Assembly: GCA_018400815.1 (NCBI GenBank)
Contig: JAGYLS010000001.1
Coordinates: 5,978-69,977, forward strand
From: Candidatus Oleincola secundus
GTDB taxonomy: Bacteria > Atribacterota > Phoenicimicrobiia > Phoenicimicrobiales > Stramentimicrobiaceae
Direction: 5' to 3'
Length of the DNA stretch: 64,000 nucleotides
Position 1 is the stretch's first letter. Each line of letters opens with the position of its first letter. A program made the translations under genes and the position numbers. The notes beneath the pieces were generated by a model, which had not been told where the DNA came from, searched no databases, and saw nothing but the letters and a program-made list of their open reading frames with translations. Positions 12,001-43,541 of the stretch are shown piece after piece.

Positions 12001-13057
12001 GACTTTGATAAGTTGCACCAGCATCTTTATCTATCCAAATTTCATCATCTTCATAATTCAACCCTAATAAAGATAGTTTAGATTGAAATTTAGACATAGT
12101 ATATATCCCTGAAAATCTAGCATATCCTGACACTATAGAGTCATAATCTTCATTAAATAAAACTTGTCCTGAATCATTAATGGTAATAGTTCTATCAGAA
12201 GGTATATTGTAAATACCAACTGTTCTAGCTTCATGTGATTCACCTGTAGAAAATAAAGCTACTAATTTAAATCTATTAAAAGTAGAATCTAAATTTTCTA
12301 TTTTTAATGAAACAGTTTTATTAGATACTTGAGCATACTCATTATTTAAATATACACCACTTCTTCTAGTAGCCCCTGTAGAACTTACATCTATTCTTTC
12401 ATCTTTTACATCTCCTATTAAAATAGGTTCTGATTTAAGACTAGGATTTATAAAATCATAAGAATTTATTTCATATTGAATACAATATTGATAAGTTCCA
12501 CATTTTAATTGGCCTCCCTCTATAACATCTTCTAATCCAAAAAAAGGAGTTTCAAATTCAGGCTGAAGATACATTAATTCTAATGTTCTTTCTAATGTAC
12601 TATTAGTTTTAGGTAGTATTTCTTTAGCAGCATTAGTATCAAAAGGTAAAGAAGTAAGATTTAATATAAAAGGTTTACCTTTATTAACATAATCAAAAAA
12701 TGATATTATAACATCTTTTTTATAATTATAAGTATAAGTACCTGTTATTTTAGTAGTATAATTAATATTTAAATAATCACTGCTGTTTGTCTTACATTTT
12801 GTATTAAGACTAGTTCCATCATAAGTATGTATGCTAAAATAATCATTTTGATCTAATGTAAATAATATAACATAATCATCTAATTCAATATTTCCTATTA
12901 TTCTTGCATCTTCAAATAAATATTTATTAGTAAAACCTTTATGATTAGTAATACCTTTACCCGGTTGTCTAATTACATTTTTGGCATCAATCCAAGAACC
13001 TGTTGGCAGATTTATATGTTCTAAGTCTAAATTAAGACCTTTGTTAATTTCGATCAT
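9071..13057 (-). CDS. Very large tail or baseplate-associated protein, 1328 aa.
   Basis: Complete ORF. Asn-, Tyr- and Thr-rich composition is typical of tail or receptor-binding proteins. No RNAP DxDGD motif. Confidence 0.55.
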   Translation of the reverse strand: MIEINKGLNLDLEHINLPTGSWIDAKNVIRQPGKGITNHKGFTNKYLFEDARIIGNIELDDYVILFTLDQNDYFSIHTYDGTSLNTKCKTNSSDYLNINYTTKITGTYTYNYKKDVIISFFDYVNKGKPFILNLTSLPFDTNAAKEILPKTNSTLERTLELMYLQPEFETPFFGLEDVIEGGQLKCGTYQYCIQYEINSYDFINPSLKSEPILIGDVKDERIDVSSTGATRRSGVYLNNEYAQVSNKTVSLKIENLDSTFNRFKLVALFSTGESHEARTVGIYNIPSDRTITINDSGQVLFNEDYDSIVSGYARFSGIYTMSKFQSKLSLLGLNYEDDEIWIDKDAGATYQSLANDIKIILHVDQIPSSENDNGIYISKNSKHSFKNMSFCPGEVYALYIAFGKGDKISKGYHIPGRVAEDLTFDEVEINEKDIITETLVNSWHTTSVEANDELQFDIHELEVIDSPKWFQIRDYAPSGKTAYHENEDEQYPNNINFNSNYPDTPPVNSLANTNIRHHKIPGYDHICKMGLDTNLNYRISLNFDYTTITLPQSVKDKYDTVYLLYADRTSSESRVLGMSPMFSDRVIYNAKDYNDNTDLKDNDKSIRFFDNSLNLINPHISPTFVKAEFILENVNEPYPAPNNYFLEIPMDFINKSDLLTIGDVDPDNNTRIRVLDNYIYLPEGDSSKTPKNINERNVDDALVIDNREKSVALLLNSVDDTLLESTKVDSSMGTYIIHHNSKFTFSTKLLRLYADSAKTKYNSIHLGTLLSLKPSYYINFNNKNLIRANCLSFTNSRNGVLLSEIESGTPLTDKRFLGDSYFNNEYAKTKITYYTGVDFVEYGEYIVTSFSFCFPNYSKVNSCYAKNNAGNRDNPQLEYNPVFSLRNGIDHFTPSNLELKNVTEINTRFTRSAVLGTEAKELGWRKFNLLEYFDFPSDAGTATYLFGGDRTILFGFNKDIYIAEVKETLDTGGGQTLALRTNNLFDTSPIRIQDTFERSVHIQNRDNIFITKYGFVFYDDINEIIYLFDTKSAPFPISKLGMNNYLKSLDINAVVGRYDEETDHIFFTIWGNEISSWSYYLTEKQLVSTYDFNLNNYFNIKEQTYGYKNISDDTQIVKFNNDTNYGKYFDTTYTSYIDIVFADNVTLSKVLESIVWNNEIALGNQKYWDKHIKNLIIYNDYTCAVNGEFDKYIKYINGNYHLNRIKDQKYNRNDILLLSDNSINPNIVAEYPIPDGNELPLNRKYYVLFGSVDHDGNTYSTGDIFIPVNDAPVTFVDLNSIIYSVKNKFEKSNIICKFAILRFILNDASTPNYKVILNDIIVNYTKSI

Positions 13058-13059
13058 AA

Positions 13060-13710
13060 TTATAATATCATAGTATTAACCATAGAATGTATTTCTTTCA
13101 TAACTAGTTTATCAAAAGACATATCATTTCTAGCCATAGCTGTGTATTTATCAAATTGATAATTAGGATTTAAATCTGGTAGATTAGGATTAAAACTTAA
13201 AGGTTTAATTTCTAATCCTTGAAGCATTATTCTTTTCAATATATACCAAGAGATGGCTTCTTTTAATAAATCATTATTAATTATAATAGGAAACTCTATA
13301 CCTAACTTAGTATCGAGTTCTGTTTTTAATTTCCTATAGGTCATAATCAAAGGAGTATCATCTTGAACTATATCTGTATGTATATACCCATTATGGATTT
13401 TTAATTGTATGTTTGAATTATATTCATTATTAACATTAAAGTTAGGATTATAATTAGGATGATCTATTCTTAATTTATATCCTTTATACTTTATATATTC
13501 TATTTCTTTAATAGAACAAGGTAACTTAGTGTTACCTTCTGTCAATGTTAATTCTTCATCTTCAATTAAATTCCAAACTAAGGGACATCTTATTTCAGAT
13601 AAAGCCTTTTCAATCCACATTGGAGATAAATTAATCCAACCTCTGTGAGGAATATTATAACTAGATAATAAATAAGCTATTATCTCTTTAGAATTAATTA
13701 AATTTTCCAT
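13060..13710 (-). CDS. Hypothetical structural protein, 216 aa.
   Basis: ORF in an operon-like array with 3-12 nt spacers. Confidence 0.5.
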   Translation of the reverse strand: MENLINSKEIIAYLLSSYNIPHRGWINLSPMWIEKALSEIRCPLVWNLIEDEELTLTEGNTKLPCSIKEIEYIKYKGYKLRIDHPNYNPNFNVNNEYNSNIQLKIHNGYIHTDIVQDDTPLIMTYRKLKTELDTKLGIEFPIIINNDLLKEAISWYILKRIMLQGLEIKPLSFNPNLPDLNPNYQFDKYTAMARNDMSFDKLVMKEIHSMVNTMIL

Positions 13711-13721
13711 TATAGGTAGTA

Positions 13722-14597
13722 TTAAACATTTTTACTATAATTAATAACATGCAAAGGATCAAATATTATAAGCCATAATAGTTTTTGAGAACTACCGATG
13801 TAATCACAATTTAATATATCTTCTTTAGTAGTACATTTTTCTATAAATTTATCTCTTGACTTTTCACCAACATATAGTTTATTTCCTTTTTCTATTCTTT
13901 GGACATTATTAAAAGAAGTTGGAACAAAAGTAAAATATTTCCTATTGGGTAATTTACAAAAATAAATATGCCAATTCCACCAATAGTCATAGGTATTATC
14001 ATAATAAACTATATATTTATGTCCTGTTGTATTATCTTTAGAATATAATTCTTTACCAGATTCCAGTAATTCTTTTTTTAATTTAGTTGTTGAATCCCAA
14101 TCTATTTGAGAATTAGTTCTTTTGTTTTCTTCTAATATCTTTCTTTCTCTAATGAAAATACTAGATAGTTTATAACCAAAAGAATAAGTACCATACATTA
14201 AAGTATATTTAGTTATCTCATGGTTTATAGTATTTATTGTTTTAGCATATCTTTTTGAAGATTTAACTTTATATAATACAGTAGAATAGAAACTTAATTC
14301 TTTTAAATTATTTTCATATTGTTTTAATGGTTTTATATATTCCTTTAATAAATAAAATAGTTTTCTTTGAGAATCACTAATAAACTTATTAGGTTTTAAA
14401 ATATATAAATCTTTAACTTTTTCAGAAGATAATTTAATAAATTTGGTATGATCTATTTTAAGTAAAACTAAATAATTAGTTAATTCTTTAACTATTAAAT
14501 TTATCTTATTTAATAACTCTATATTATCTTCTTGTATCTTATTAAGTTTTGCTTCTAAATATTGGATAGTAAATTGGTGTTGATCTGATATTGTCAT
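13722..14597 (-). CDS. Hypothetical protein, 291 aa.
   Basis: ORF in the same array. Confidence 0.5.
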   Translation of the reverse strand: MTISDQHQFTIQYLEAKLNKIQEDNIELLNKINLIVKELTNYLVLLKIDHTKFIKLSSEKVKDLYILKPNKFISDSQRKLFYLLKEYIKPLKQYENNLKELSFYSTVLYKVKSSKRYAKTINTINHEITKYTLMYGTYSFGYKLSSIFIRERKILEENKRTNSQIDWDSTTKLKKELLESGKELYSKDNTTGHKYIVYYDNTYDYWWNWHIYFCKLPNRKYFTFVPTSFNNVQRIEKGNKLYVGEKSRDKFIEKCTTKEDILNCDYIGSSQKLLWLIIFDPLHVINYSKNV

Positions 14598-14599
14598 AA

Positions 14600-15256
14600 T
14601 TAATTCTCTGCTTGTTTAGATGATATAAATTGTTCAGATAGTAATTTAGTGTTTATTCTATTTATTATGTCTATGGGTATGTCTAATTCAATATTGGTTT
14701 TCTGTTTAACTGTTATTTCTTGTGGTTTAGATAATAAGGATGTATATTTTTTATCTGTTGTGTATTCATATACTGTAGTTAAATCAGCAAATACAGATGT
14801 TATTTTTGTTTTGTTAATAGGAACAATACTAAATACATAAATTAATTCATTTTGATAAGCATATCTAATTCCTCCAGATACTAAAGGTAGATATTCAACA
14901 AAGTTTAATTCTTCAAAAGAACAAGGTATAAATGATACAGTTCCATCTTCAGAACCAACAAAAGTAAATATCTTTAAAGAATTATTTGTTCTTATTGGTT
15001 GCTTAATCTTAAATCTACTAACATATAATGATATTTTACTTGTTTTCTCTAAAGGCGAGTTTAGTACCCTTTCTAAAGGCATAAAAATAGATGATAATAA
15101 AGAATTACTATATCCATTTTTATCTATTGTTTGTTTAATTAAAGTAGCATATTCTTGTTGTATTAAATCTTTCAATGTAGATTTAAACAATAAATCATTT
15201 GATTTACCAACATTGTTAGCTATTTGATCTGCCCATTTGTCTAAAGTAATTATCAT
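14600..15256 (-). CDS. Hypothetical protein, 218 aa.
   Basis: ORF in the same array. Confidence 0.5.
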   Translation of the reverse strand: MIITLDKWADQIANNVGKSNDLLFKSTLKDLIQQEYATLIKQTIDKNGYSNSLLSSIFMPLERVLNSPLEKTSKISLYVSRFKIKQPIRTNNSLKIFTFVGSEDGTVSFIPCSFEELNFVEYLPLVSGGIRYAYQNELIYVFSIVPINKTKITSVFADLTTVYEYTTDKKYTSLLSKPQEITVKQKTNIELDIPIDIINRINTKLLSEQFISSKQAEN

Positions 15257-15310
15257 AATTATTATATTAAAAAGTAGGCTTTAAATTAATAAAGCCTACT
15301 ATTATTAAAT

Positions 15311-15583
15311 TTATTTTTTATTTAGAAAAATCAATTTAAATATTTCTCCAACTAAATCTGCTGCTTCATCTATCATTCCTGCTTTATTAGCAACAACAAA
15401 CTCTTGGGCTAATTGTAGAAACTCATTGTAAATGGCAATATTAAAATCCTTTAATGCTTTACCACCTTCTTTAATAATTAGACTAATGGCAATATCTGTA
15501 CCCCATTCTAACCATATTTTTTTAGGTTCAATTAGTTTATCTAATTCATCAATTAATTCTTTTAATACTTGTTCTTCATCCAT
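15311..15583 (-). CDS. Small hypothetical protein, 90 aa.
   Basis: ORF immediately upstream of the holin-like gene. Confidence 0.4.
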   Translation of the reverse strand: MDEEQVLKELIDELDKLIEPKKIWLEWGTDIAISLIIKEGGKALKDFNIAIYNEFLQLAQEFVVANKAGMIDEAADLVGEIFKLIFLNKK

Positions 15584-15591
15584 AATATTTA

Positions 15592-16029
15592 TTATTTAGT
15601 TAAGTTTTTAATTTTAGAAGTTAATCCTCTTTTATCAATAGTTCTCATTCCTGAATATCCAAGATAACCAGCCCCAAATAACCAATACAAATCACTTGGT
15701 ATTGCTGACCAAAAGCCTGTTAATCCTTCTGTAAATGCTAATGCTGCTTCTTGATTGAATGTTCCTACTATTGCTACAGGTATAGCCATCAATATTATAA
15801 TGTAAAATACATACATAAATGAAGGTCTTGCTCTTGAAGTCCACGGATCAGCACTTTTGGCTTCTGTTTTAATTACATCTAATGTTGCTTTCAATTCTTC
15901 AAGTTCACCTTTTCCTTCCATTTCCATCAACTTCATTTTAGCTTCATTCTTAGCTTGTTCTGAAGGAAAGTAATCACTGATTTTATCAATCAATTTTGTA
16001 CCTATATTGAATATTTCTCCTACCATCAT
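15592..16029 (-). CDS. Putative holin. Membrane protein with an N-terminal coiled segment and two predicted TM helices.
   Basis: Hydrophobic stretches SFMYVFYIIILMAIPVAIVGTF and WLFGAGYLGYSGM. Its start codon overlaps the endolysin stop (ATGA). Confidence 0.5.
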   Translation of the reverse strand: MMVGEIFNIGTKLIDKISDYFPSEQAKNEAKMKLMEMEGKGELEELKATLDVIKTEAKSADPWTSRARPSFMYVFYIIILMAIPVAIVGTFNQEAALAFTEGLTGFWSAIPSDLYWLFGAGYLGYSGMRTIDKRGLTSKIKNLTK

Positions 16030-16493
16030 TAATCAATTATGAAAAAATGTACAGCATCAAATAGTTTCTGGTCTTTTAAGTCCCAATCCCCATCCCAATC
16101 TATTCCACAACCTATTCTGTGTTCAATAACTCCTTGCCTATGTAACATCTCTGCTATTCCAATAACATATCCAGCAAAATAGATTATCTTATTTGTATCA
16201 GAATACATTTCAGGATAAGGAACTACATCAACTGCTTTAGATGGAAAATGATTATGATCTGATTTAACATCATGTCCATCACAGTTAGTAACCACTTTGG
16301 ATTTATCTGCAACTTCCCAATACCCATTGACTTTTGTTCTGCCTTTTTTCCAAAGATCAAATTGTTCATCTGGTGTCCTATGACCAAATACAACTGAACA
16401 ATCTACAAACTCTATTATAAAATTGAATAGAGTTTGCAGATCATCATGTGCAGTTGATAATGCTCTTTTACTATTTACAGAGTAAGCAGGCAT
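16029..16493 (-). CDS. Endolysin of the peptidase M15 family (L-Ala-D-Glu peptidase / VanY-like zinc peptidase).
   Basis: Zinc-ligand motifs HRTPDEQ (H-x3-D), SDHNHFPSKAVDVVP (SxHxxGxAxD-like) and a C-terminal D-x-x-H (DAVHFF). Confidence 0.7.
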   Translation of the reverse strand: MPAYSVNSKRALSTAHDDLQTLFNFIIEFVDCSVVFGHRTPDEQFDLWKKGRTKVNGYWEVADKSKVVTNCDGHDVKSDHNHFPSKAVDVVPYPEMYSDTNKIIYFAGYVIGIAEMLHRQGVIEHRIGCGIDWDGDWDLKDQKLFDAVHFFIID

Positions 16494-18127
16494 TAAAGGT
16501 TATATGTTTTGTTAATATTATGGTAATTACCACCAACATTAACATTTTTTATTTCTACAGTATCCCAATCTGATGTTTTTAATGATCTAGATTCACCATC
16601 TTGTTTAACTACTTGTCTATTAGTTGTACCACTTCCATTTTTCTCAAATTTAAGTTTTACATCAAGAGTATCTTTTGTTTTATTTTGAATAAAAACATAA
16701 TTTCCAAGTGTTAAATGAGGTTTTATTAATAATTTAAAAAATGCATTATCATCCAACACTAATTCAGTAACTTTTTCGATTGGATCAAATTTAACAGTTA
16801 CTTTGTGAGAGCCAACGTTATAGTTAAATTCATAATCGTGAAACTTCTCTGGATTAGAGAGATAATAGGCACTGATTATAAAGCTATGTACTTCATTTCT
16901 AAGTGCTAACATTTTCCCAGCAACTCCCGTAGTCCTTGATTCTCCATAAGAGCAATTAACCCTGCAAACAATCCTTTGATCTTTCTTGTTGACATAATGA
17001 TATTTACCATTTTCTTTAAAAAATGCAACATTTTCATCATCATAAATTGTAGTTTCAGGAATATCAACTTCTGGTAATTCGGGTATATCTTCCTCAAAAG
17101 GTTTAGCACCTTCAAATGTAATAGTTGTTCCTTCAACAGAACTTGGTTCATACCTCTTATCTGCTTTAACATAATAGGTTGTAAATTTCCAAGTGCCCCC
17201 CGCATCAAGAAAATAATCAAGTGTGTGTAATACTTTTGATCCTCTTATAGAAGCACTCTTACCATGTGCAGACGATCTGTTGTCAACTATCTCGCCATTT
17301 TTGTCAAGCCGTTTAATTATGAAATAAACTGGTGATGTCTTATTTTCTGCATAAACTGTGTTGTTAGCAACATAAAACACCATGTAATCATCTTCATAAA
17401 TCACATTTTCCCATTGCTTTTGATTTACGGCCATAATTGCCTCATCTTCAATAAGTTCCCCTGTAAATGCATCAGTACCTGTTGCTTTCAATATTACCTC
17501 TGTGTCATTTCCCGAAACAGCGTAACATCTTGTGTAAGGCTTACCATCCCTCCACATTGACCTTGAATATTGGATAAGCTCGCCTTCACCTTTAACAACT
17601 TCGATTTTTGGATTAGCAATATTTTTAGCTGAAAAACCAATCATTACAGGACTTGTATCACCTTCGTTAAAAGTATCGGGTAAACTTACCATAAGTTCAA
17701 CTTCTGCCAGTTCAGGATCATAAATCAAATCAGTGATTTCCTCGCCAATTTCAATGTTATTCATCCAATATATCTGCAACCCCTGATAAATCATATCTTC
17801 AACAGGATCCTTCACCATATTAACGATTTCCTCACTTAGCATTTTTTTGTAAGTCCCATCTGGAAAATAAATACCAGTTTCAATTTCTTCATTATAATCA
17901 AAACCTTCATCCCCCTCTTGCATTGTATCTTCTGATTTTCCTACTATCCATGCATACCATTTTCCGTTCTCAAATTTAAACGGTACTGACCCATACACTC
18001 TCTTAGTGATTGGAGAATACATAAATCCCCAACATCCTGCCAGGTTTATGTCTTTTAGCTCTGCATATACAAAAGTGGGCAATCCTGCTCCGCCTTTGGG
18101 ATTTAATAAAATTTTTGTTGGTTCCAT
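16493..18127 (-). CDS. Hypothetical virion protein, 544 aa. Compositionally chimeric: the N-terminal two thirds are GC-elevated.
   Basis: Complete ORF. GC shifts from about 30% (16493-16900) to about 40% (16900-18127). Confidence 0.5.
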   Translation of the reverse strand: MEPTKILLNPKGGAGLPTFVYAELKDINLAGCWGFMYSPITKRVYGSVPFKFENGKWYAWIVGKSEDTMQEGDEGFDYNEEIETGIYFPDGTYKKMLSEEIVNMVKDPVEDMIYQGLQIYWMNNIEIGEEITDLIYDPELAEVELMVSLPDTFNEGDTSPVMIGFSAKNIANPKIEVVKGEGELIQYSRSMWRDGKPYTRCYAVSGNDTEVILKATGTDAFTGELIEDEAIMAVNQKQWENVIYEDDYMVFYVANNTVYAENKTSPVYFIIKRLDKNGEIVDNRSSAHGKSASIRGSKVLHTLDYFLDAGGTWKFTTYYVKADKRYEPSSVEGTTITFEGAKPFEEDIPELPEVDIPETTIYDDENVAFFKENGKYHYVNKKDQRIVCRVNCSYGESRTTGVAGKMLALRNEVHSFIISAYYLSNPEKFHDYEFNYNVGSHKVTVKFDPIEKVTELVLDDNAFFKLLIKPHLTLGNYVFIQNKTKDTLDVKLKFEKNGSGTTNRQVVKQDGESRSLKTSDWDTVEIKNVNVGGNYHNINKTYNL

Positions 18128-18258
18128 AATTTGTTAATTTTAAATGAATGTTTTAATAATGTAGCCTAAAGCCACAAGCAGTATTCCTATAATTATCAGA
18201 TAAAGGAATAGTGCTGTTTTGTATTTCTTTAATTTTATATTTTTTAAAAGGTCTCTCA

Positions 18259-18648
18259 TTAAATATTATCTGTTGGGTGATTCCTCAAATGAGCATTTTC
18301 AAGATTATGGAATTTAGATTCAATCTTGTTAACCCTCGCTTCAAGTCTATCTACACAGGTTTCAAGTTTCATTATTTTGGTTTCAACAAATTGAATTTTC
18401 ATTGTAACATTACTATCTAATTCCTGAACAGCACTCCTTGTCAACTGATTATCAAGTTTAACATCAGCTATTTGACTTTTTACATCATCAAGTAGTTTCT
18501 TTATGTCATTTAAAGTAGATTGTAAAGAAGTTATCCAATTCTTTCCTCCCCAAAAAATAAATGTTATAGTTCCACCTATTAGTGCAACTGCCAGTATTCC
18601 CACAAACCATTCAGTCATATTATTTAGTATTTTTAGTAATTCATCCAT
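18259..18648 (-). CDS. Membrane-anchored coiled-coil protein, 129 aa. Has i-spanin-like topology, possibly a type II membrane protein.
   Basis: N-terminal TM WFVGILAVALIGGTITFIFW followed by heptad-rich coiled coil. Confidence 0.4.
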   Translation of the reverse strand: MDELLKILNNMTEWFVGILAVALIGGTITFIFWGGKNWITSLQSTLNDIKKLLDDVKSQIADVKLDNQLTRSAVQELDSNVTMKIQFVETKIMKLETCVDRLEARVNKIESKFHNLENAHLRNHPTDNI

Positions 18649-18683
18649 CGGATTAAACTTTAAATTCCTTATTTTACTTTATT

Positions 18684-19463
18684 TTAAACCACTTCCCATC
18701 CTTGTGGATATGCTGTTGGTGACCAAACATTTGCATCAATCAAAGACCGATAATGAGTTCCTTCAAACATTACTTCATCTCCTGTATTGTAAGCATCATG
18801 CGCACCTGCTGGTTGTGTCCACTCTGGAATAACACCAGGAGGAGCTATTTCAACAAATAATGAAACTGCCACTAAAGGATTCCAATCATTTTGCGAAGTG
18901 TGAGATTGAATTACTTTATATAATTTGCCATCATGCACAACTTTATCATCAATTTCATAAGAAACACCATTTCCACGCCATTGTGAAAATAACATCTTAA
19001 TATCTTCGATGTCTTGTTCAGTTAAATTATCTTCATCAGCAATGATAGGTTCAGCTATTTTTCTTAATAGCCTTTTGGCTGCTTTATCATTGAATTGATT
19101 ATCTTCGATTTGTAATTTCAATTCTTCGTAATCTTCTGTTGATAATTCATCAACCATTGCCTTAGCATAGTTCGCAAAATTGTTATATTCAATAAAAGAA
19201 TCAATATCCTCATTTGCTTGCTTTTTGCGCACAATAGCAGCTTCCTGATCGGCTGTGTATCGGGTGCGGATGATTGCTGTTATAATTGTGCCTCTGTTAA
19301 TGTCAGGAACATTCACATATTGATAATTAAAACTTGCGGGCGTTTCCTCTGTTGCTTCAATTTCTGTAAAATCATACCTGAACTGATACGTTTTATCGGT
19401 AAGAAGTTGTGTTTCGGTTGTCGGTAAGGCTTCATTGCCTTGTTTTGTTCTGTTGCCTTTCAT
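18684..19463 (-). CDS. Protein with two tandem C-terminal CBM5/12 (chitin-binding type 3) carbohydrate-binding modules. Possibly a tail-fibre accessory or adhesin.
   Basis: DGKLYKVIQSHTSQNDWNPLVAVSLFVEI and AYNTGDEVMFEGTHYRSLIDANVWSPTAYPQGWEV match the CBM5/12 consensus (AY..G..V.Y.G..Y.C.Q.HTS..W.P...W). The gene is GC-elevated. Confidence 0.6.
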   Translation of the reverse strand: MKGNRTKQGNEALPTTETQLLTDKTYQFRYDFTEIEATEETPASFNYQYVNVPDINRGTIITAIIRTRYTADQEAAIVRKKQANEDIDSFIEYNNFANYAKAMVDELSTEDYEELKLQIEDNQFNDKAAKRLLRKIAEPIIADEDNLTEQDIEDIKMLFSQWRGNGVSYEIDDKVVHDGKLYKVIQSHTSQNDWNPLVAVSLFVEIAPPGVIPEWTQPAGAHDAYNTGDEVMFEGTHYRSLIDANVWSPTAYPQGWEVV

Positions 19464-19547
19464 GTTATTATTATTATGTCGTTATTATTAATGATTTTGC
19501 GAGCATAGCGAAGCAATCTTATGTTGTTTTTATACTTCATACTATGT

Positions 19548-21149
19548 TTAAAACTCCAGGAAAAGGCGAGAGCCAATGCTCGCATGGCGATCAGACGCAG
19601 GATAGCTGACGCGCAGAGACGCGAGGCCGTCAAACGCACCAAGGTGCAGATAGCCGCCCGCAAAAAGGCCGCGAAAACCAACGGTGGGATAGGCGGTATA
19701 AAAATAATCGCCACAATGGTTTGATCCGCTGCCTGTACCGCCCGTGAGTAGTGGCAGCATAGAGCCTTCTGCAAAGGTATTCACATAACCATTGCCTTCA
19801 GCTATGTTTTTGTAAAACTCATAATTTGTAAAAGTATCGTCAGCAAAATTTGCAGGATTTTTACAAATGTATGTTTCTGAATTTTCGGCACTGTTGTAAA
19901 TGTTAATGCCATCCTTCCACTCCCATATATGCCCAAAAACATCGCGCTGCCAGTGGAAAATAGCCATCTGCGTGCTTAAATCGCCTGTGCCACCTACAAA
20001 ATCACTAACAGTAAGTGGTATGCTGCCATTGCGGACATTAGCGGTATTCGGGTCAGCAGGTGTGGCAGTAACCGTTCCTGCTCCTGTTGCCGCTGCGCTT
20101 CCTCCGTCAGTTGTCCATACAGGATTGTAGGCGTTGTAGCTACTCCAATCGTCGCTACTTGCATTTGATGCGCCATCTCCCAGGTTTGTTTGTGAGTTCA
20201 TGTTCAAAAACTCAACCAACATCAGCCAGTATTTCATTTCATAATACCAAAATGGTTCCTGGCTCCATTTGCTGTGTGCTGTTTTATTTTGCGCGTAGGT
20301 ACGAAATTCAGATCGGCCTTTATTCGTTGTTGGCGTTACGCCTGAAATACTTCGCAGCTTACTATCTCCTGCAAGGTCAGCGTAGGCAGGGTAAATGCCT
20401 ACTGCATGTTTTGGCACTTCAATAAATCCTGGCAGTGCATACTTGCTAAACATGATTTGTTGTTTGTTACGCAAAGTATCTCTGTATGCTTTGAAATACA
20501 TACGTTCATACACCGTCATTACATCACCATCAGCACCTGTAAGAACAGATGCAGTAACTCCATCTTCTTTCAGTGAAAGATTTGTTGGGTCAAGTTTATA
20601 GGCAATTGTTCCATCTTCTTCAACCACAGCAGGGTAGATCATGTCATAACCAGTTACTGCATTTTGTGCAAACAAAACAGGATTACCTATTGCAGTAACA
20701 GTTGAATTTGTTTGACCTGGTGTCCATTCTACGCCGTACCAATATGTATCAAATGAATTGAATATTGGGTCATTCATCACTACATAATCACTTGCCCCTG
20801 TGTACATCACATCAACATACTCCCATTGGTATCTTAATGTTGCTATTGTATCACCATTATAATCAGTTACAGCTACAGTACCAGATGTATCATCTACTTT
20901 TTGTATTCTGAATCTGACATTTGTTAGGGTACTCGAATACAAAGGGTGAGAACCATAAATTTGAAATTCTAAATCATCTGTACCTGTAGTAAACAGATAA
21001 TGATTGTAACCTTCATAATCAGATACACTCTGACTTGTAGATACCGCAATAGGATTAAAAATAGTCGATGTAATAACAATAGGTGTAGTATCACTTGTTA
21101 AATCTGATATTCTTAAATCTCCTAATATATAATCATAAACTAGTCCCAT
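19548..21149 (-). CDS. Tail fibre / receptor-binding protein. It has an AT-rich N-terminal phage-type anchor and a GC-rich C-terminal FGE-sulfatase / C-type-lectin-like domain.
   Basis: C-terminal motifs FGHIWEWKDG (FGE 'GNVWEW') and GG..LG....RVSYPASDRHASIGSRL (FGE 'RGGSW..R.AYR....R..IGFR'). GC jumps from about 30% to 45-58% at about 20750. Confidence 0.6.
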   Translation of the reverse strand: MGLVYDYILGDLRISDLTSDTTPIVITSTIFNPIAVSTSQSVSDYEGYNHYLFTTGTDDLEFQIYGSHPLYSSTLTNVRFRIQKVDDTSGTVAVTDYNGDTIATLRYQWEYVDVMYTGASDYVVMNDPIFNSFDTYWYGVEWTPGQTNSTVTAIGNPVLFAQNAVTGYDMIYPAVVEEDGTIAYKLDPTNLSLKEDGVTASVLTGADGDVMTVYERMYFKAYRDTLRNKQQIMFSKYALPGFIEVPKHAVGIYPAYADLAGDSKLRSISGVTPTTNKGRSEFRTYAQNKTAHSKWSQEPFWYYEMKYWLMLVEFLNMNSQTNLGDGASNASSDDWSSYNAYNPVWTTDGGSAAATGAGTVTATPADPNTANVRNGSIPLTVSDFVGGTGDLSTQMAIFHWQRDVFGHIWEWKDGINIYNSAENSETYICKNPANFADDTFTNYEFYKNIAEGNGYVNTFAEGSMLPLLTGGTGSGSNHCGDYFYTAYPTVGFRGLFAGGYLHLGAFDGLASLRVSYPASDRHASIGSRLFLEF

Positions 21150-21152
21150 AAT

Positions 21153-21485
21153 CTAAAATGTTATATTAGTTCCTGTAAAAGCATATATTTTAGCCCTATT
21201 ATCATTCAACCATGTTTCTTCTACATAATCTCTACTAACATTACCACCATCAGCAACTTCTACAGTTTTAGTAAGAGTTAGTTTTCTAATAGCCCACTTT
21301 TCATCAGAAGCCGCAGTTTCAGATGATTCAGGATAACCTATATAAATAGTAGTCACATTAGAATCGGCAGTCAACACATTAGATACATATTTTCCACCAT
21401 TTAGAACTATAGTTCTTTTTATTGGTTCATTTCCTATACTTAAAACTTCAGGTATTGTGTAATTCATTATTTTATTCTTTAACAA
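21153..21485 (-). CDS. Hypothetical tail-associated protein, 110 aa.
   Basis: ORF overlapping its neighbour by 14 nt. Confidence 0.45.
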   Translation of the reverse strand: MLKNKIMNYTIPEVLSIGNEPIKRTIVLNGGKYVSNVLTADSNVTTIYIGYPESSETAASDEKWAIRKLTLTKTVEVADGGNVSRDYVEETWLNDNRAKIYAFTGTNITF

Positions 21486-22719
21486 TTAATACTTCATAAG
21501 TTATTGTATTTCCTTCAAATCCAAATGAACCAGGAACAACTTCACTAATCCAAATTTCAGTTATTGCTGTCTCATTAATAAAAGAATTAACAATAGTTCC
21601 ATCATTTTCATATTCAACATTAGCAATTAAATCACTAGCTGCACTACTACTACCTATCTTTAAATAAGCAGTACCTGTTCCACCAGAAGCTGAACCTTTT
21701 ATATTAAATAATCTATAACCAACTGGTACATCCATTAATTTACCATCAGCAGATATAGTAGCTTCTATGAGTTTATGTTCTCTATTAGATTCAAATGCAA
21801 AAGAATCATCTACTGTATCAGAAGCAGGATCATAAGGATTTTTTAATAAAGTACAATTAAAATAATCTCTCTTATCTAATAGTAAACCATAATAAACACT
21901 ATTTATAGAAAATAATACTTCATTGTCTTTATTTGTCTTTACCATTTTATACTCTTTAAAAGGTATAAAATTAGAATACGATCTATCTATTTCTATATCA
22001 TTAGAAGATGTATCACAAAACACATTAAAATTATACATATTAATACTAGGAGAAGCAACACTTACATTAAGAAGTGGATGTTGACCACCTACCATTTCAA
22101 AATTAAGCCAAGTGTAAGTACCAAATGTAGAAGGATAATGTACCCAATCTGAATATCCTACAGTTAATGTACCATCAGGAATAATTGTACCTTTTGTAGA
22201 ATAAATCCATTGTGAATTTTTATAATTAGTTCCTTGTGATGCTACAAATATTATACCTGTTAAGGTATCTGTTGCTTCATCAAATATAGATAATCTTTCC
22301 CACGGTTCATCTTCATGCACTATATATACTCCATTTAAAGGCCCAAGCCAAGCAGGACATAATACTACATCACCCTCTTCACAAAGAACACCATCACAAG
22401 TAGCACTACCTTGTATTTCTGTATCTACTAAAGGAGTAGCACTGTTTATATTAATAGCTTTAACATAAAACGAACCATCATAAACTCTAGCCTTCCAAGT
22501 AGAACCATCGTTATATAATTGCCATGTTATACTGTTATTCGGATCTTCAAATGTAAAACCTTCATAGTAAGCATCACTACTTACATCATTTAAATATGTT
22601 AATAACTCTGTTAGTGTATTAAAATAAGCACCTGGAGCTAATGATTTCTTAGAATCTACTGGAGATTTAGTAATATTCATTAAAGAATAGTTAACTGTTT
22701 TAATAGTTTTATTTGCCAT
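21472..22719 (-). CDS. Hypothetical tail protein, 415 aa.
   Basis: ORF. Confidence 0.5.
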   Translation of the reverse strand: MANKTIKTVNYSLMNITKSPVDSKKSLAPGAYFNTLTELLTYLNDVSSDAYYEGFTFEDPNNSITWQLYNDGSTWKARVYDGSFYVKAININSATPLVDTEIQGSATCDGVLCEEGDVVLCPAWLGPLNGVYIVHEDEPWERLSIFDEATDTLTGIIFVASQGTNYKNSQWIYSTKGTIIPDGTLTVGYSDWVHYPSTFGTYTWLNFEMVGGQHPLLNVSVASPSINMYNFNVFCDTSSNDIEIDRSYSNFIPFKEYKMVKTNKDNEVLFSINSVYYGLLLDKRDYFNCTLLKNPYDPASDTVDDSFAFESNREHKLIEATISADGKLMDVPVGYRLFNIKGSASGGTGTAYLKIGSSSAASDLIANVEYENDGTIVNSFINETAITEIWISEVVPGSFGFEGNTITYEVLIVKE

Positions 22720-22720
22720 G

Positions 22721-23188
22721 TTATGTGTTATTAACTTTAAATTTTAAATTTAAAGGCCAAGTTTTATTTCCATAATTATCTGTACCATTACTTATGTATA
22801 GTATATGACTTTTACCTCCAACAGGATATTCAAAATCGTCAGTTTTAGTAAAAGTAGTAACAGTTTCATATCCTGAACCATCTAAAGGAATAGTAATATA
22901 ATCAATTCCAACTTGTTGTTGCCAATAATAATATTGAGGAAATGGAGGAAAATGTTTAGGCAATAATACATACATATAACAACTAACTATACCAAACAAG
23001 GTTTGCCAATTTAAAGATATAGTTTCTGCTGGAGAAATACTACTAGATTCATAAGCACGTTGACCTTCTACAATTGAAGCTAAATCACTAATAATTGTAG
23101 CTGGTGTAATAGTTCTAGACTGACTAACTCCTATTATAGCTTGAGTTTTTGAAGCTACACTAGAGAGTATTGGAATTGGATAATGCAT
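22721..23188 (-). CDS. Hypothetical protein, 155 aa.
   Basis: ORF. Confidence 0.45.
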   Translation of the reverse strand: MHYPIPILSSVASKTQAIIGVSQSRTITPATIISDLASIVEGQRAYESSSISPAETISLNWQTLFGIVSCYMYVLLPKHFPPFPQYYYWQQQVGIDYITIPLDGSGYETVTTFTKTDDFEYPVGGKSHILYISNGTDNYGNKTWPLNLKFKVNNT

Positions 23189-23200
23189 ATTATTTATTTT

Positions 23201-25060
23201 TTATATAGCTAATAAATTACCAATAGGTTTACTAATTGAACCCATAAATCTCACCTTACTTCCTGGAGTAGTAAGATCTACTTTTCCTGATATTAAACCC
23301 GAATATACAACTACATCTGAACTTCTATTTAATGTAGCTACATCGCCAGTATCAACTTTTATAAACCTACTATCATCAAAAATAATAGTCATGCTGTCTC
23401 CTTCACTACCAATCGTATTATATTTAGATTCAACTATAATAGTAAATGACCCACCTATTCCCGCTTCTATATTTGTTCCATCTCCATAATCTTCTAGAGT
23501 AATAGTAAGAGTTTTTCCATCTAAAACATACGCATAAATAATATGAAGAATATTGCCTTTACTAATATCAAATGCTATTTCTTCAGTCATATCCTCTTCA
23601 GTTCCCTCTACAAATTGAAGTCCTGTTCTACCAAATCCTTCTATTGTAGAATGGCCTGATCTTCTTTTTATATTATTGCTTCCTTCTACAACATTCTTTT
23701 TAATTTCAATGTTACCATATCCTTCTAATTTCTTAGGAGTGACTAAAGTACTATGCTCTGTACTAACACCAAAGTTAATATCACCTCTAACAAAAGTATC
23801 ACCAAATCCCTCAATATCGCCTATATTGTCATTTACTGATATTGCTACCACTGTATCTTTATCACCTCTTACTCCAGCATCATCTAAAGATTCAGTGCCT
23901 GCTTCATCATTTACTACATAAAAGTCTTTGTGTATAGTTAATTTAGAAGTATTACCTATTATAAGTTGCTTAGAGGTAGTATCTTTAATATTTACATCAG
24001 CAATTCCATAAATTGTTTTACTAGTAATATCTACACTAAATACAGAATTTGAATAACCACTAGCAGCTGACCCAACATAAAGATCATTTTTAACATAAGC
24101 TTTTCCATTTAAAGTAGTAATTCCAGTTACTATTAAAGTTCCACCAATTGAAACATTCCTACTAGCTATATAATCTCTAGAGTTAATATCCCTTGTGGTA
24201 ATTAAAGTGCAATATTCATTAATAAGTAACGCCTGTTCGGTTGTTGTATTACGAACTCTTAATAAATTAGAACCCGCTCCATAATTTATATCTATGATTT
24301 TTGTACCAGTAGCATTTTGTAATACTACATCTTCATATTTAGATACTATTCTGTCTCCGTATGCAATAAGTTTACCACTATGAATATTCAATAATTCATC
24401 ATCATCTAAAATAACAGGATTAGTTCCTATGTTTAAAGTTTTAGGTATTGATACTTCATTAGTAAAACTAACTTCTATATATCTTCCATTATAATCATCT
24501 TCTCCAGTTTCGTCTACTCTATTAAATATAAAATTAGTTACTCCATCTGGTTGCACTAAACCTAATATAGAATCTCCACCTAAATAACAAGCAAAATCCC
24601 AACCTAAACTAATATTACTAGTTATAACTGAATTTCTAACATAAATAGCATCTGTTGTTTTATCAATTAATACATCTCCTTGAAGAGTATATCGTTTCCA
24701 AAAAGGAATATATGAATTTGCATCTTCACTGTCACCTATATTATTTATATTGTTTACAACAAAAACTCTATGATTATCATCAAAAAACTTAGTATGCTCT
24801 TCATTACTATGTAAAAAAGGATTAGCCTCTGAATAAGCTGTTAAGTTTGTTGGAAAAGTAATTCCATCTCTCATTATAAGTCTATATCTTCTTTGAGAAG
24901 CAGCATTTACTATAGTAGAGGGTATTAATTTATTACCAAATTCTGTTTCAACTACTTGTTGAATAGTAGTTAAAGTACCATATCCAAAAAAACTTTTATA
25001 ATCTAAATTACCAACTGAATTATAAGATAATAAAGTTCCTATTGTTTCTATTAGTGCCAT
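23201..25060 (-). CDS. Tail fibre or spike-like protein, 619 aa.
   Basis: Repetitive beta-rich Gly/Thr/Asn/Ile composition and repeated VxNDxxG segments typical of fibre shafts. Confidence 0.45.
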   Translation of the reverse strand: MALIETIGTLLSYNSVGNLDYKSFFGYGTLTTIQQVVETEFGNKLIPSTIVNAASQRRYRLIMRDGITFPTNLTAYSEANPFLHSNEEHTKFFDDNHRVFVVNNINNIGDSEDANSYIPFWKRYTLQGDVLIDKTTDAIYVRNSVITSNISLGWDFACYLGGDSILGLVQPDGVTNFIFNRVDETGEDDYNGRYIEVSFTNEVSIPKTLNIGTNPVILDDDELLNIHSGKLIAYGDRIVSKYEDVVLQNATGTKIIDINYGAGSNLLRVRNTTTEQALLINEYCTLITTRDINSRDYIASRNVSIGGTLIVTGITTLNGKAYVKNDLYVGSAASGYSNSVFSVDITSKTIYGIADVNIKDTTSKQLIIGNTSKLTIHKDFYVVNDEAGTESLDDAGVRGDKDTVVAISVNDNIGDIEGFGDTFVRGDINFGVSTEHSTLVTPKKLEGYGNIEIKKNVVEGSNNIKRRSGHSTIEGFGRTGLQFVEGTEEDMTEEIAFDISKGNILHIIYAYVLDGKTLTITLEDYGDGTNIEAGIGGSFTIIVESKYNTIGSEGDSMTIIFDDSRFIKVDTGDVATLNRSSDVVVYSGLISGKVDLTTPGSKVRFMGSISKPIGNLLAI

Positions 25061-25084
25061 TTTATATATTTGTTAAATTATTAA

Positions 25085-26782
25085 TTAAATCTCAGAATAA
25101 CGTAATTCAAAATAGGTTAAAGCATTGGACATAACACCTACATAAGTGTTATAATCATAAACAAGAATATCAACAGTATTAGTTGATACAAACCACATTG
25201 TATATAATTTACCATCATAAGTTACATTTTCGATATGAGCAACTGGATTATTAACACCTATTGTGTGATATATACCAGAAGCATTTACTTTAGTATAATT
25301 ATAAATAGGAAAACCTATTCCTTCAGGAATCATAAAAACACAAATGCAATTAGTAGTAGGCCAAGTACCATAATATTGTCCTTGCAAATATACATCAGTG
25401 GCTATAGCTTTAAATCTAGCATCCAAATTTCTATTATTGTCAATAGAAAAAACTAAATTATTTTTATTTGTAATTTCAGCAGCATTAATCTTAAAACTGT
25501 GATTATCATCTAACCAACTTAAAATACTATTTTTTAAATCTTCAAGTTCCCACGGGGGATTTACTAATTCACTTCCATCTATATCAATATCATAATTTTT
25601 AAATCCTTTACTTGAGTCAAAATCAGAATTTAAAGGATCAACACTATAAGGAGTGCCATCTATATTTTGATATTGGCTTAGTGCGAATATTGGAAAATAT
25701 ATAATACTATTTTCAGGAGTTCCTATTAATTCACTTTCAGATAAAGTTAAATATTCAACACCATCTATATCTTTAAATGTTATTTCAGCTGTTACTGTAT
25801 CTCCTTCAACTATAGAATATTCACCGCCTATAATTCCATTTAATACAAATTGTTGAATTACTACATCAGGATTTTCTATAGATTGATTATCAAAAGGATC
25901 AGGACTATCATTTAAATAATAAGATATTTCTGTGTTACCTTCATATTTACTAGGTAGAAATTGATAAATAGCGGTTAATGTGTTTTCTATTTCATCATAT
26001 GTCAAATAAGTAAAACTCTGAAAAGGATTTAAATCCATATATATAGTAGCATTTATATCTTGATCTTCTACTATTATATTTGTATTAGGAGTAGTCTGTT
26101 GAGAATTATAAGGATGGAAATTTTGAACAGTAGCACTTATTCTATATTCTCCAGGAATAACGTCAAGTAAAGTAACTTCACCTTGATCATTAGTAGTTCC
26201 TGTTTTAGTAACTGAAGGATTAGATATATCTTCTATGATTACACTAACCCCTTGTATAATATCATGAATATTTAAATCATCTTTAACCTGAATAGTTACA
26301 GTATAAGTATCTATCGGAGGAATTGCAGTAGAAGTAAATACATAGGCATTAGATTTACTATGTATAACTTCTCCTGAATTATTCAATACCTCTAAAGTTA
26401 TTCCATATTGTCCAACAGGAAAAGAACTAAATAAAGGAATAAATTTATTAGATTCCTTGTAAATAACTCCATCCCTTAATATTCTCCATCTAAGTTGACC
26501 AATTTCTTTATTTGTGGCTATAATTGGCTGTAATGTTATATTATTACCAGCCTGATAAGTAAACGGAGAATCGCCGGATTCAGCTAAATGTTGAGTATCA
26601 TTATAAAATACAACAAAATCTACTGATCCTGAAGAAGTACCACCACCAATACTTTTTAATAACTCTCCCGATATTTTTTTATCTTTAAGATCATTTGGGT
26701 CATAGCCATATAATATAGCATTATCTGGAATACTAGGAAAAGACTCAGATAATTGACTTACATGTTTTGTTTCATCAGCCAT
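25085..26782 (-). CDS. Tail fibre / adhesin-like protein, 565 aa, with a carboxypeptidase-regulatory-like (Cna-B-type) beta-sandwich domain.
   Basis: VKDDLNIHDIIQGVSVIIEDISNPSVTKTGTTNDQGEVTLLDVIPGEYRISATVQNFHPY matches CarboxypepD_reg-like pattern (G.V.D...G..........tD..G...l..l..G.Y.l). Confidence 0.45.
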   Translation of the reverse strand: MADETKHVSQLSESFPSIPDNAILYGYDPNDLKDKKISGELLKSIGGGTSSGSVDFVVFYNDTQHLAESGDSPFTYQAGNNITLQPIIATNKEIGQLRWRILRDGVIYKESNKFIPLFSSFPVGQYGITLEVLNNSGEVIHSKSNAYVFTSTAIPPIDTYTVTIQVKDDLNIHDIIQGVSVIIEDISNPSVTKTGTTNDQGEVTLLDVIPGEYRISATVQNFHPYNSQQTTPNTNIIVEDQDINATIYMDLNPFQSFTYLTYDEIENTLTAIYQFLPSKYEGNTEISYYLNDSPDPFDNQSIENPDVVIQQFVLNGIIGGEYSIVEGDTVTAEITFKDIDGVEYLTLSESELIGTPENSIIYFPIFALSQYQNIDGTPYSVDPLNSDFDSSKGFKNYDIDIDGSELVNPPWELEDLKNSILSWLDDNHSFKINAAEITNKNNLVFSIDNNRNLDARFKAIATDVYLQGQYYGTWPTTNCICVFMIPEGIGFPIYNYTKVNASGIYHTIGVNNPVAHIENVTYDGKLYTMWFVSTNTVDILVYDYNTYVGVMSNALTYFELRYSEI

Positions 26783-26785
26783 AAT

Positions 26786-27187
26786 TTAATCTTTATAAGT
26801 TTGAATAAATTCATCTCCATCTCTAAGAGTAAAATAAATTCTATCTATTGTTACTAATATATTAAGTCCATCTTCAGTAACTACTGGTATTTCAAATATG
26901 TCTAAGAAAGTTTTAAACTTAATATTATGACAATACATTTTCTTAACTATATCTTCTACATCATAATCAACTAAAACATCAGTCCATCCATATCCACTAT
27001 TAAATGTCATTTTAGCTTTAATAGAATAGAATATATAGAAAAAGTATTTATAATTAGCAGGACTAGTATATACATCTGATCTTCCTGTTATACTTTCTAT
27101 GTAAATATGATCTTTCCAAATATTACTCATTTGATTAGAGAAATAATCAGTAAATCTATTATAATATATAGACAAAGGAGTTAACAT
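26786..27187 (-). CDS. Hypothetical protein, 133 aa.
   Basis: ORF. Confidence 0.45.
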   Translation of the reverse strand: MLTPLSIYYNRFTDYFSNQMSNIWKDHIYIESITGRSDVYTSPANYKYFFYIFYSIKAKMTFNSGYGWTDVLVDYDVEDIVKKMYCHNIKFKTFLDIFEIPVVTEDGLNILVTIDRIYFTLRDGDEFIQTYKD

Positions 27188-27756
27188 GAATATTCAAAAT
27201 TAGAACTTAATAAATATTGATTTATTCTATATATTATTTCACTTGTTTCAAATAACCTATTATATAGTCCACTTGGTAAATTATCTACTGTACTATTAAT
27301 ATCTCTAAACTCCCAACCTAAAAATGAAAAAGACATATTACTGACTACATTAAAAACATAATCCCTATGTGAGAAATAATACTCATTACAAGGTTTAGTT
27401 GGACAACAACATATATTATCCTGTGCTGTTTCAAACAAGTAGTCAGTAATATTCTTAACATTGATTATAACATGCTTGTATTCTTCACCTAATTCATTTT
27501 GTATGTACAGATAATAAATACCATCATCTGTAACATTTATACTTATAGAGGCAGATAGAATATCAAATATTTTAATATATTTACCAACACGAGAATAATT
27601 GATTTCATCTATTAAAGGAAGTACTATATTATCTTCTTCATTAGTAACAGGATTTAGTTTATTAATTTTGTAAGAATAATAAACATCAGGTGTAGCCGCT
27701 AATGTAAAATCAATAGTTACTTTATTATAATCATTTCTAGTTATTATATAACTCAT
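27181..27756 (-). CDS. Hypothetical protein, 191 aa.
   Basis: ORF with overlapping start and stop codons with its neighbours. Confidence 0.45.
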   Translation of the reverse strand: MSYIITRNDYNKVTIDFTLAATPDVYYSYKINKLNPVTNEEDNIVLPLIDEINYSRVGKYIKIFDILSASISINVTDDGIYYLYIQNELGEEYKHVIINVKNITDYLFETAQDNICCCPTKPCNEYYFSHRDYVFNVVSNMSFSFLGWEFRDINSTVDNLPSGLYNRLFETSEIIYRINQYLLSSNFEYSC

Positions 27757-42791: not shown

Positions 42792-43541
42792 ATGCCTATT
42801 TTTAATGTAATTAATATGTTTAATTTAAAATCTTATCTTATGAAAAGAGATGAATTTAGTGCTAAGATGATTGAACTTAATGTTGACGCAGCAGATGTTG
42901 ACAGATTAGTAGCAATTCCCGGTATCAATGGCAAAACTTATGCTCAATATGCAAAGAGAATTGCTGAATCTGGTGATCCGATCAATGAAGTAACTGCAAT
43001 CATTGCCGAAAGCATCCCGGTAGATGATAATGTATTCTCCATTGACAGACCAGAAAGAGTACTGGCTACTGGTAAAATTGTATCCTGCAAAGTACAAAAA
43101 GCGTACAAAGGATCAACAGCCAGTGTAGTTAATGAAGATGGCAGTGTAACATTACCTACAACAGATTGGCAACGTACTCATTACAGATTAGTTTTGTCTG
43201 TAGACAATGATGTTATCGTTGTTATAGCCGGACACAGGAAAATGTATCAACAAACAGAAGAGATGTTGAGTGATTCGGAAATGTCCATTGATCGTAAAAT
43301 CATTAATGCGGTAAATGGTAAAAATGCTACCCTTGAATTTGATGTGTTTAAACCTGGTAAAATATATCAGATTGAAGGTAGTGATACTGTTAAAAGACCT
43401 GATGTCCTCGAAAGACATTTAGTAGACTTATCCATTGGTGAATCCGAAGATCAACGAAGGATCGAGTTCATTCAAAAACTCATGGAAATCTCAGGAGGAC
43501 AGTTAACCCCAGAGATAGTAGAGTTGAGCAAGTCTATCTAA
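42792..43541 (+). CDS. Hypothetical protein encoded by a GC-elevated (about 40%) moron. The likely start is ATG at 42840.
   Basis: ORF with codon usage unlike the rest of the phage. It is flanked by its own structured leader and a terminator. No family recognised. Confidence 0.55.
   Translation: MPIFNVINMFNLKSYLMKRDEFSAKMIELNVDAADVDRLVAIPGINGKTYAQYAKRIAESGDPINEVTAIIAESIPVDDNVFSIDRPERVLATGKIVSCKVQKAYKGSTASVVNEDGSVTLPTTDWQRTHYRLVLSVDNDVIVVIAGHRKMYQQTEEMLSDSEMSIDRKIINAVNGKNATLEFDVFKPGKIYQIEGSDTVKRPDVLERHLVDLSIGESEDQRRIEFIQKLMEISGGQLTPEIVELSKSI

Follow-up and report, generated by a model that had tools for sequence, protein, structure and literature searches.

A predicted retroelement-target domain within a GC-raised island of a putative, divergent crAss-like phage

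A GC-raised island between the tail and lysis genes

The 64-kb stretch of contig JAGYLS010000001.1 (GenBank assembly GCA_018400815.1) analyzed here, referred to as the window, carries the genes of a putative phage and, between the tail genes and an endolysin/holin lysis pair, an island of raised guanine-plus-cytosine (GC) content that takes in the gene of a 533-aa tail protein. All genes of this region lie on the minus strand. Coordinates are positions within the window; the contig is 88,545 bp long in total, and its remaining 24.5 kb were outside all searches of the window. Since the major capsid protein (487 aa) matched PF23898 Crass_capsid with 119 bits (cut-off 27), a tail ring protein (218 aa) matched PF25702 CrAss_Ring_2 with 41.6 bits (cut-off 27), and the large terminase is 35-38% identical to those of crAss-like phages across 93-98% of the protein, these protein matches identify the phage as a deeply divergent member of the Crassvirales. 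A 216-aa protein matched CrAss_Ring_1 with 25.2 bits, slightly below the cut-off of 27. No relatives of the backbone genes were found in IMG/VR, the JGI metagenomes, the INPHARED phages or a set of 5.8 billion proteins, and a DNA search of positions 15500-23000 against 50,697 phage records (INPHARED) gave no match. Likewise, no close relatives were found when the tail protein and its 415-aa neighbour were scanned against IMG/VR and a 619-aa neighbour against IMG/VR and the JGI metagenomes.

The overall GC content of the window is 27.5%. In 300-bp windows the backbone has a GC content of 0.269 ± 0.038, with a maximum of 0.393 at a separate gene near position 42900, while the island (16805-20946) has a mean of 0.374 and a range of 0.263-0.503; the highest 100-bp window reaches 0.62 at 19561-19660. 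The GC content at third codon positions (GC3) is 0.24-0.36 across approximately 16805-20946, compared with 0.11-0.12 in the remaining 10,500 codons on this strand and 0.08-0.16 in individual backbone genes. By gene, it amounts to 0.229 (16493..18127), 0.242 (18684..19463) and 0.324 (19548..21149, with a local peak of 0.55). As the signal sits at silent sites, amino-acid composition does not explain it. A likelihood-ratio segmentation of the 11,779 third codon positions of minus-strand genes returned four segments, two of which form the island (Table 1). The dinucleotide signature agrees with this result: the island lies at a distance (delta*) of 175 from the backbone, compared with 57 ± 19 (maximum 111) for 105 equal-size backbone chunks.

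The island described in the original prediction is therefore real according to sliding-window GC, GC3 segmentation and the dinucleotide test. The GC content of 35-58% that had been ascribed to it throughout held as a rise but not as a uniform one, since there is a dip to 0.30-0.31 over 18000-18750 and the island is a patchwork of two compositional tiers rather than one block. Both edges lie inside intact open reading frames (ORFs), as had been proposed. The left one, expected at about 16900, was placed at approximately 16805, around codon 441 of an intact 544-aa ORF; on the right, where a switch had been claimed at about 20750, homology to foreign relatives begins exactly at residue 138 of the intact tail ORF, corresponding to position 20738. 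The additional stop-free plus-strand ORFs reported at 19218-20601 do exist and are an expected by-product of the higher GC content.

A predicted target domain with an orphan variable repeat

The tail protein matched phrog_5302 ("tail protein", E = 7.6e-58) from residue 84 onward. Among the 5.8 billion proteins, 46 homologues were found, and every alignment starts only at about residue 138; none of these 46 family members aligns with residues 1-137, and a search with these residues alone gave no homologue. The best homologue, P0002 (locus L001, a 4.5-kb metagenomic contig of 41% GC from SRR33375162), is 76% identical in amino acids and 77% in nucleotides from residue 138 to the end, and the nucleotide identity to L001 is 76-77% across the entire core 19149-20738. 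The junction is a domain boundary in the family, as other members bear unrelated N-termini of about 10 to 400 residues. GC3 and homology thus agree with the earlier description of an AT-rich N-terminus joined to a GC-rich C-terminal binding domain, and relatives of the binding domain and of the next gene were indeed found in loci of higher GC content (41-46%). In an AlphaFold model built with an alignment, pLDDT values (the confidence measure of the model) are below 50 for residues 1-127 and above 90 across most of residues 130-533. Residues 1-137 are presumed to be the virion anchor.

A profile of 47 sequences matched a single entry of the Protein Data Bank (PDB), 5VF4 (TaqVP), with E = 3.7e-12, and the match takes in the C-terminal scaffold of the variable repeat, GG..G..AGL...G.R. 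Similarly, a Foldseek comparison of the model with the PDB placed TaqVP at the top (E = 1.8e-8, probability 1.00), followed by Mtd, PvdO and the Treponema protein TvpA, all of which have the C-type-lectin fold, similar to that of formylglycine-generating enzymes. Profile and model therefore both assign residues 138-533 to the variable proteins of diversity-generating retroelements (DGRs). This domain, in which an orphan variable repeat (VR) forms the GC peak, goes beyond the original prediction. Its role would be receptor binding.

The VR was recognized by alignment to the template repeat (TR) of L001 (1367-1471), which is the template of another phage and encodes Asn at every variable position. 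Over 105 nucleotides there are 19 mismatches, 17 of which are at template adenines (hypergeometric P = 2.7e-11); without the 3' end, 16 mismatches are left, of which 14 fall on template adenines, within 19579-19652, and 2 on other bases (P = 6e-9). In the L001 template, AAY (Asn) stands at ten of the 11 codons that differ. The identity at positions other than adenine is 97%. Such adenine-specific mismatches are the signature of DGR mutagenic homing.

The last ~14 nucleotides of the VR (19557-19570) form an end resembling an initiation of mutagenic homing (IMH) sequence, ...CGCCTTTTCCT, which encodes ...SRLFL. Since the VRs of the window and of P0003, P0004 and P0005 all end in GSRLFL, while the templates encode GSHL(I/S)L and read CACCTA(A/T)(T/C)CCT, the three mismatches at the very end look like a fixed difference of the IMH/IMH* type. 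No significant hairpin was found downstream of the VR, where the fold is no better than that of shuffled sequences (z = -0.55). A 9-bp perfect inverted repeat, TGCGAGCAT...ATGCTCGCA, at 19576-19584 and approximately 19499-19507 on the minus strand joins the end of the VR to the adjacent spacer. The VR (~100 nucleotides) is the GC maximum of the window (62%). A DGR repeat contains few adenines apart from its mutable Asn codons, and mutagenesis lowers the adenine count further.

Relatives of the domain are accompanied by a reverse transcriptase (RT) in several loci. In L001 the target domain runs directly into an RT (PF00078). L002, which is the same locus as L006, is an integrase-bearing prophage of 46% GC and lies on an 838-kb contig from the genome bin of an uncultured Draconibacterium; its 419-aa homologue, 59% identical in amino acids to the window domain, is followed by an RT, and protein identity between the window core and this prophage is 48-59%. 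L002 contains a 144-nt repeat pair (VR 11137-11280, TR 11327-11470) that is 81% identical, with 22 of 28 mismatches at template adenines, and L005 has the same target-VR-TR-RT order with a repeat pair that is 87% identical. The RTs of L001, L002 and L005 carry the GxxxSQ motif as GNY(T/V/I)SQ, together with YADD. Because of these RT motifs, the repeat pairs and the gene order, the three loci are, as far as their sequences tell, bona fide DGRs in the order target-VR-TR-RT, with TR and RT directly downstream of the target gene (L001, L002/L006 and L005).

Some details of these loci were noted in passing. The L001 ORF at 197-2827 is an 876-aa target-RT fusion with Asn at each variable position; it is most likely a collapse of VR and TR in a short-read assembly, the alternative being a real VR-TR deletion. 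In L002 (11265-12791) and L001, the annotated RT ORF starts upstream of the template repeat and encloses it; the template mimics coding sequence, and the frame therefore stays open. An avd-like gene is absent from L001 and L002, and L005 has an 86-aa ORF between target and RT.

Members of the family without an RT are not uncommon: in L003, L004 and L007, TR and RT do not follow directly downstream of the target gene, and L007 lacks a TR. In L004 (42% GC) the target is followed directly by a protein that combines the partner domain of the next gene in the window (see below) with CBM5/12 (carbohydrate-binding module) sequences. L003 is a crAss-like phage of 88,972 bp and 32% GC with a 792-aa version of the domain. 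The gene lies four genes after the capsid gene in L003 and eleven genes after it in the window, and the neighbours are unrelated, which implies that two crAss-like lineages captured the domain independently. The GC content of the target gene is 0.39-0.46 in L001-L005, where the remaining sequence has 0.31-0.46, and it exceeds the background in four of the five loci, which suggests either that the target domain spread repeatedly out of a reservoir with a GC content of about 45% or that its composition is intrinsically constrained.

Neither a TR nor an RT was found in the 64 kb of the window. With the L002 RT as query, tblastn matched only the stretch encoded by the template repeat, at the VR, and a hidden Markov model built from the RTs of the three relatives detected no RT in the six frames of the window (best E = 0.24). 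Neither blastn-short, queried with the VR, nor a repeat search detected any copy besides the VR itself. The gene order is thus target-[gap]-partner in the window and target-TR-RT-partner in the relatives, and the 84-bp spacer in the gap shows no significant similarity to the TR or RT regions of the relatives. A resemblance of the spacer to a remnant of a TR or of the 5' part of an RT in a first alignment failed shuffling tests (p = 0.1-0.9). The 544-aa gene was also considered as the missing RT and rejected, as it has no similarity to the L002 RT and no Pfam match. The 64 kb therefore hold no complete, functional DGR cassette. We infer that the RT was lost here rather than gained by the relatives, and this may have happened before or after the cassette reached the window phage.

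Genes in and beside the island

The features of the region are listed in Table 1. The gene next to the tail gene encodes 259 aa and consists of two unlike halves. Its first 105 residues are 76% identical to a gene located 3' of the RT in L001, 48% identical to the gene following the RT in L002 and 26% identical to the gene directly after the RT-less target of L004. Judged by eye, its acidic sequence makes it unlikely that this partner domain is Avd. Homology to L001 stops at residue 105 (~19149), near the GC3 change-point at 19218. The remaining half contains two stretches of CBM5/12 (PF02839, E = 2.4e-14) and is 43-58% identical to proteins of Brevibacterium, Arthrobacter, Acutalibacter and Streptococcus phages, one of them annotated as a minor tail protein; these matches relate it to tail proteins of phages of Gram-positive bacteria. 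GC elevation throughout this gene, as originally described, was not observed: a clear rise in GC3 is confined to the first ~100 codons.

Table 1. Features of the island and its surroundings, and segments returned by the GC3 segmentation (window positions).
Feature	Position	Strand	GC3	Remarks
Segment 1	4169-16802		0.117
Segment 2	16805-19218		0.236
Segment 3	19221-20946		0.358
Segment 4	20949-40313		0.114
Holin	15592..16029	-		PF11351, phrog_3427
Endolysin	16029..16493	-		phrog_465, 1.1e-18
544-aa mostly beta-strand protein	16493..18127	-	switch at ~16805	end of tail module
129-aa membrane-anchored coiled-coil protein	18259..18648	-	0.12-0.23	one N-terminal hydrophobic helix, heptad-rich remainder
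C-terminal half of 259-aa gene	18684..19148	-	0.15-0.25	two CBM5/12 modules
N-terminal domain (aa 1-105) of 259-aa gene	19149..19463	-	0.30-0.38	conserved partner of target gene
84-bp AT-rich spacer	19464..19547	-		position of TR and RT gene in relatives
Binding domain (aa 138-533) of tail protein	19548..20738	-		predicted C-type-lectin fold of DGR variable proteins; probably imported
Orphan (fossil) variable repeat	19557..19661	-		alignment to L001 template repeat
N-terminal part (aa 1-137) of 533-aa tail protein	20739..21149	-	0.10-0.20	native

The 129-aa protein weakly matched profiles of Rz-like spanins and of XhlA (E of about 1e-4) and is possibly an i-spanin or an XhlA-like lysis protein. 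In the 544-aa gene, GC3 is ~0.27 in codons 1-440 and 0.03-0.10 in codons 441-544, which suggests an internal recombination junction at about codon 441. No close homologue of this gene was found, and no homologue confirms the junction. An exhaustive HMMER search recovered distant homologues of ~300 aa with 25-32% identity and no Pfam or PHROG annotation. The genomic context was read for one of them, P0055 (locus L008), which is located towards the end of a phage tail module and immediately ahead of an integrase. P0053, on a contig of 24% GC, has both the N- and the C-terminal domain of the 544-aa protein in common. A single-sequence AlphaFold model of this protein was unusable (pLDDT 37). The holin and endolysin genes have a GC3 of 0.18-0.19, mildly above the background of 0.117; the segmentation leaves both unsplit, outside the island proper.

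Further along the window, a strong terminator-like hairpin with an 11-bp stem followed by a T-run is located at 15273-15300 on the minus strand, directly 3' of a 90-aa gene, and probably ends the tail/lysis transcription unit before the ring-protein genes. A second, smaller GC-raised gene (42792..43541, plus strand, within 42500-43700; 249 aa, GC 0.36 and GC3 0.27) adjoins a divergent switch region of 13-17% GC at 41600-42400. It has no Pfam or PHROG match and may be another imported gene. No tRNA genes and no sign of stop-codon reassignment were found in positions 1-64000, the ORFs being long and contiguous in the standard bacterial code.

Origin of the module and relation to known systems

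Taken together, our results are probably best explained by a divergent crAss-like phage whose host-recognition region is a patchwork, with an imported core that carries a DGR-target domain and from which the diversifier is absent. According to this explanation, the core (~19149-20738) would stem from a Bacteroidota phage or prophage lineage of about 41-46% GC; the binding domain of ~400 residues would have been grafted at residue 138 onto the native N-terminal anchor, and the first 105 residues of the next gene would have been imported along with it. In the source lineage, the RT would copy the template repeat and misread adenines, and the cDNA would overwrite the VR that encodes the ligand-binding surface. 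The VR of the window bears the scars of such homing, while the intervening TR and RT are absent from the 64 kb, so that the binding site has most likely become fixed in a single specificity. The leftward extension of the island would be due to additional modules, imported or shuffled, namely the CBM5/12 sequences, the coiled-coil protein and the first 440 codons of the 544-aa gene. Silent sites, dinucleotide signature and compositionally matching relatives all point to horizontal acquisition of the core 19149-20738, from which we infer the direction of transfer. As to the replacement by one 3.9-kb cassette that had been put forward, the foreign silent-site composition stands, but a source lineage was identified only for this core. 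A host-range switch, which had been named as the consequence of the cassette, is plausible.

Several observations weigh against this explanation. No backbone relatives were found that would allow a before/after comparison, so that the island could also be ancestral rather than derived, and the nearest source relative is only 77% identical in DNA, which points neither to a particular donor nor to a recent date of transfer. The template used for the adenine scar comes from L001, whose target-RT fusion is probably an assembly artefact. The left tier (16805-19148) could be traced to no source lineage, and GC3 alone marks it as foreign; its delta* of 109, compared with the maximum of 111 for larger backbone chunks, makes it weakly distinct. 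The GC content of the target gene is 0.39-0.46 in every genome examined, even in the crAss-like phage of 32% GC, which would fit an intrinsic constraint as well as repeated transfer. Finally, TR and RT could lie at a remote position in the other 24.5 kb of the contig.

The last point leads to the alternative that the DGR is still active, with TR and RT in those 24.5 kb or acting in trans from a co-infecting phage or a host prophage, and continues to rewrite 19557-19661. DGRs with remote targets are known in bacteria and would provide a precedent. The VR is far closer to the L001 template at non-adenine positions than the remainder of the gene is (77%); at sites encoding the same amino acid, 17 of 18 codons are identical, compared with a fraction of 0.35-0.7 in most other blocks; the IMH-like 3' end is intact and the same as in the VRs of the relatives, and the ORF is intact. 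This high identity could stem from a recent homing event, perhaps in trans, with an L001-like template as the donor, but it could also be due to patchy recent exchange or nucleotide-level constraint. The TR/VR region is conserved in general (85% identity between L001 and L002, compared with 64% for the remaining gene), and the block of residues 304-369 (20043-20240) shows a similarly high codon identity of 0.83-0.90, so that recent homing is not required. The conserved 3' end also encodes the near-invariant structural residues R528 and L529. Moreover, TR and RT directly follow the target in all three complete relatives, while the corresponding slot of the window is the 84-bp spacer without a remnant, and the 64 kb contain neither of them. 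We therefore regard a still active DGR as unlikely. The narrower proposal that a phage without RT keeps a homing-competent VR and relies for its rewriting, in trans, on a DGR in a co-infecting phage or a resident prophage is highly unlikely; if true, the phage would borrow a diversifier carried by another element.

It is quite unlikely that no transfer took place and that the GC rise is intrinsic, resulting from amino-acid composition, an adenine-poor DGR design or codon selection in an ancestral module. Consistent with such an origin, the target family keeps its GC content of 0.39-0.46 across genomes of 31% to 46% GC, the Gly/Ala/Thr-rich part has elevated GC1 and GC2 as well (up to 0.70), the VR accounts for the sharpest peak, and no backbone relatives show an alternative allele. 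However, protein constraint cannot produce a GC3 that is two- to threefold the background level across ~1,300 codons of four functionally unrelated genes. The composition breaks within a few codons of the homology break at residue 138, and in the next gene, too, a break falls where homology ends (residue 105 at ~19149, GC3 change-point at 19218). The N-termini attached to the domain are wholly different among family members, and the dinucleotide signature of the core is at a distance of 265 from its own backbone but only 89 from L001. An assembly chimera joining reads of two phages would fit a metagenome-type contig that was seen once and has abrupt compositional steps; yet at least two in-frame junctions sparing the 533-aa and 544-aa ORFs would be needed, the gene order from tail to lysis to ring proteins is coherent, and the island itself is a graded patchwork rather than a single foreign block. 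Such a chimera is extremely unlikely.

Incomplete DGR cassettes have been described in crAss-like phages. One report deals with crAssphage LMMB and AlphacrAssvirinae genus I; in genus I, 15 of 91 genomes carry a full cassette of target gene, VR, TR and RT without avd, and 66 of 91 carry incomplete cassettes (PMC7290462). Another describes the RT as fragmented or absent in many Epsilonunovirus genomes and the receptor-binding protein of crAssE-Sib as likewise closest to TaqVP 5VF4 (PMC11054128). The tail protein of the window resembles the incomplete cassettes of the two reports in that it ends in a DGR-type VR (PMC7290462; PMC11054128). In contrast to the described cassettes, its domain sits on a different N-terminus without homologues and no TR fragment is left, and the large terminase, at the low identity given above, sets the phage apart from described crAss-like phages. 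The module also contrasts with an extremely AT-rich backbone, a contrast that the available text of these reports does not mention (PMC7290462; PMC11054128).

With TaqVP of Thermus aquaticus the window protein shares the predicted C-type-lectin fold and the location of the VR at the C-terminus, but identity is 12-14%, the target-normalized TM-score (a measure of structural similarity) is only 0.45, and the window protein has an extra N-terminus of 137 residues. TaqVP itself is encoded by a bacterium next to an intact DGR and does not belong to a phage tail. Mtd of Bordetella phage BPP-1 (PDB 1YU0-1YU4) is the second-best structural family (E = 2e-3 to 1e-2) and is a phage receptor-binding protein whose C-terminal C-type-lectin VR is rewritten at template adenines. 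The similarity is weak (TM-score 0.30), and unlike BPP-1 with its complete and active DGR (avd, TR and RT), the window yielded no TR and no RT.

The C-terminal receptor-binding domains of tail fibres are exchanged modularly between phages, while the N-terminal anchor is kept. The case presented here resembles such exchanges in that the junction lies at a domain boundary and a neighbouring accessory gene travels along; it differs from the usual ones in that the domain would belong to the DGR-target class and the contrast is unusually large (GC3 of 0.36 compared with 0.11). As incomplete DGR cassettes are already documented in crAss-like phages, the novelty is modest: the locus reveals no new mechanism and is a clear example of a known pattern. 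What it provides is a concrete explanation of the compositional anomaly, in which a binding domain grafted at a defined residue would have arrived together with a partner gene from a lineage of higher GC content. For crAss-like phages, this would add a very divergent and extremely AT-rich member to the list of those with incomplete DGR cassettes. As a hint for annotation drawn from this one example, the VR of a DGR may be recognizable in AT-rich phages, even without an RT, from a sharp rise in GC content at the 3' end of a tail gene. The window and L003 would be a clear case of one DGR-target domain that was taken up by different crAss-like backbones, each at another position.

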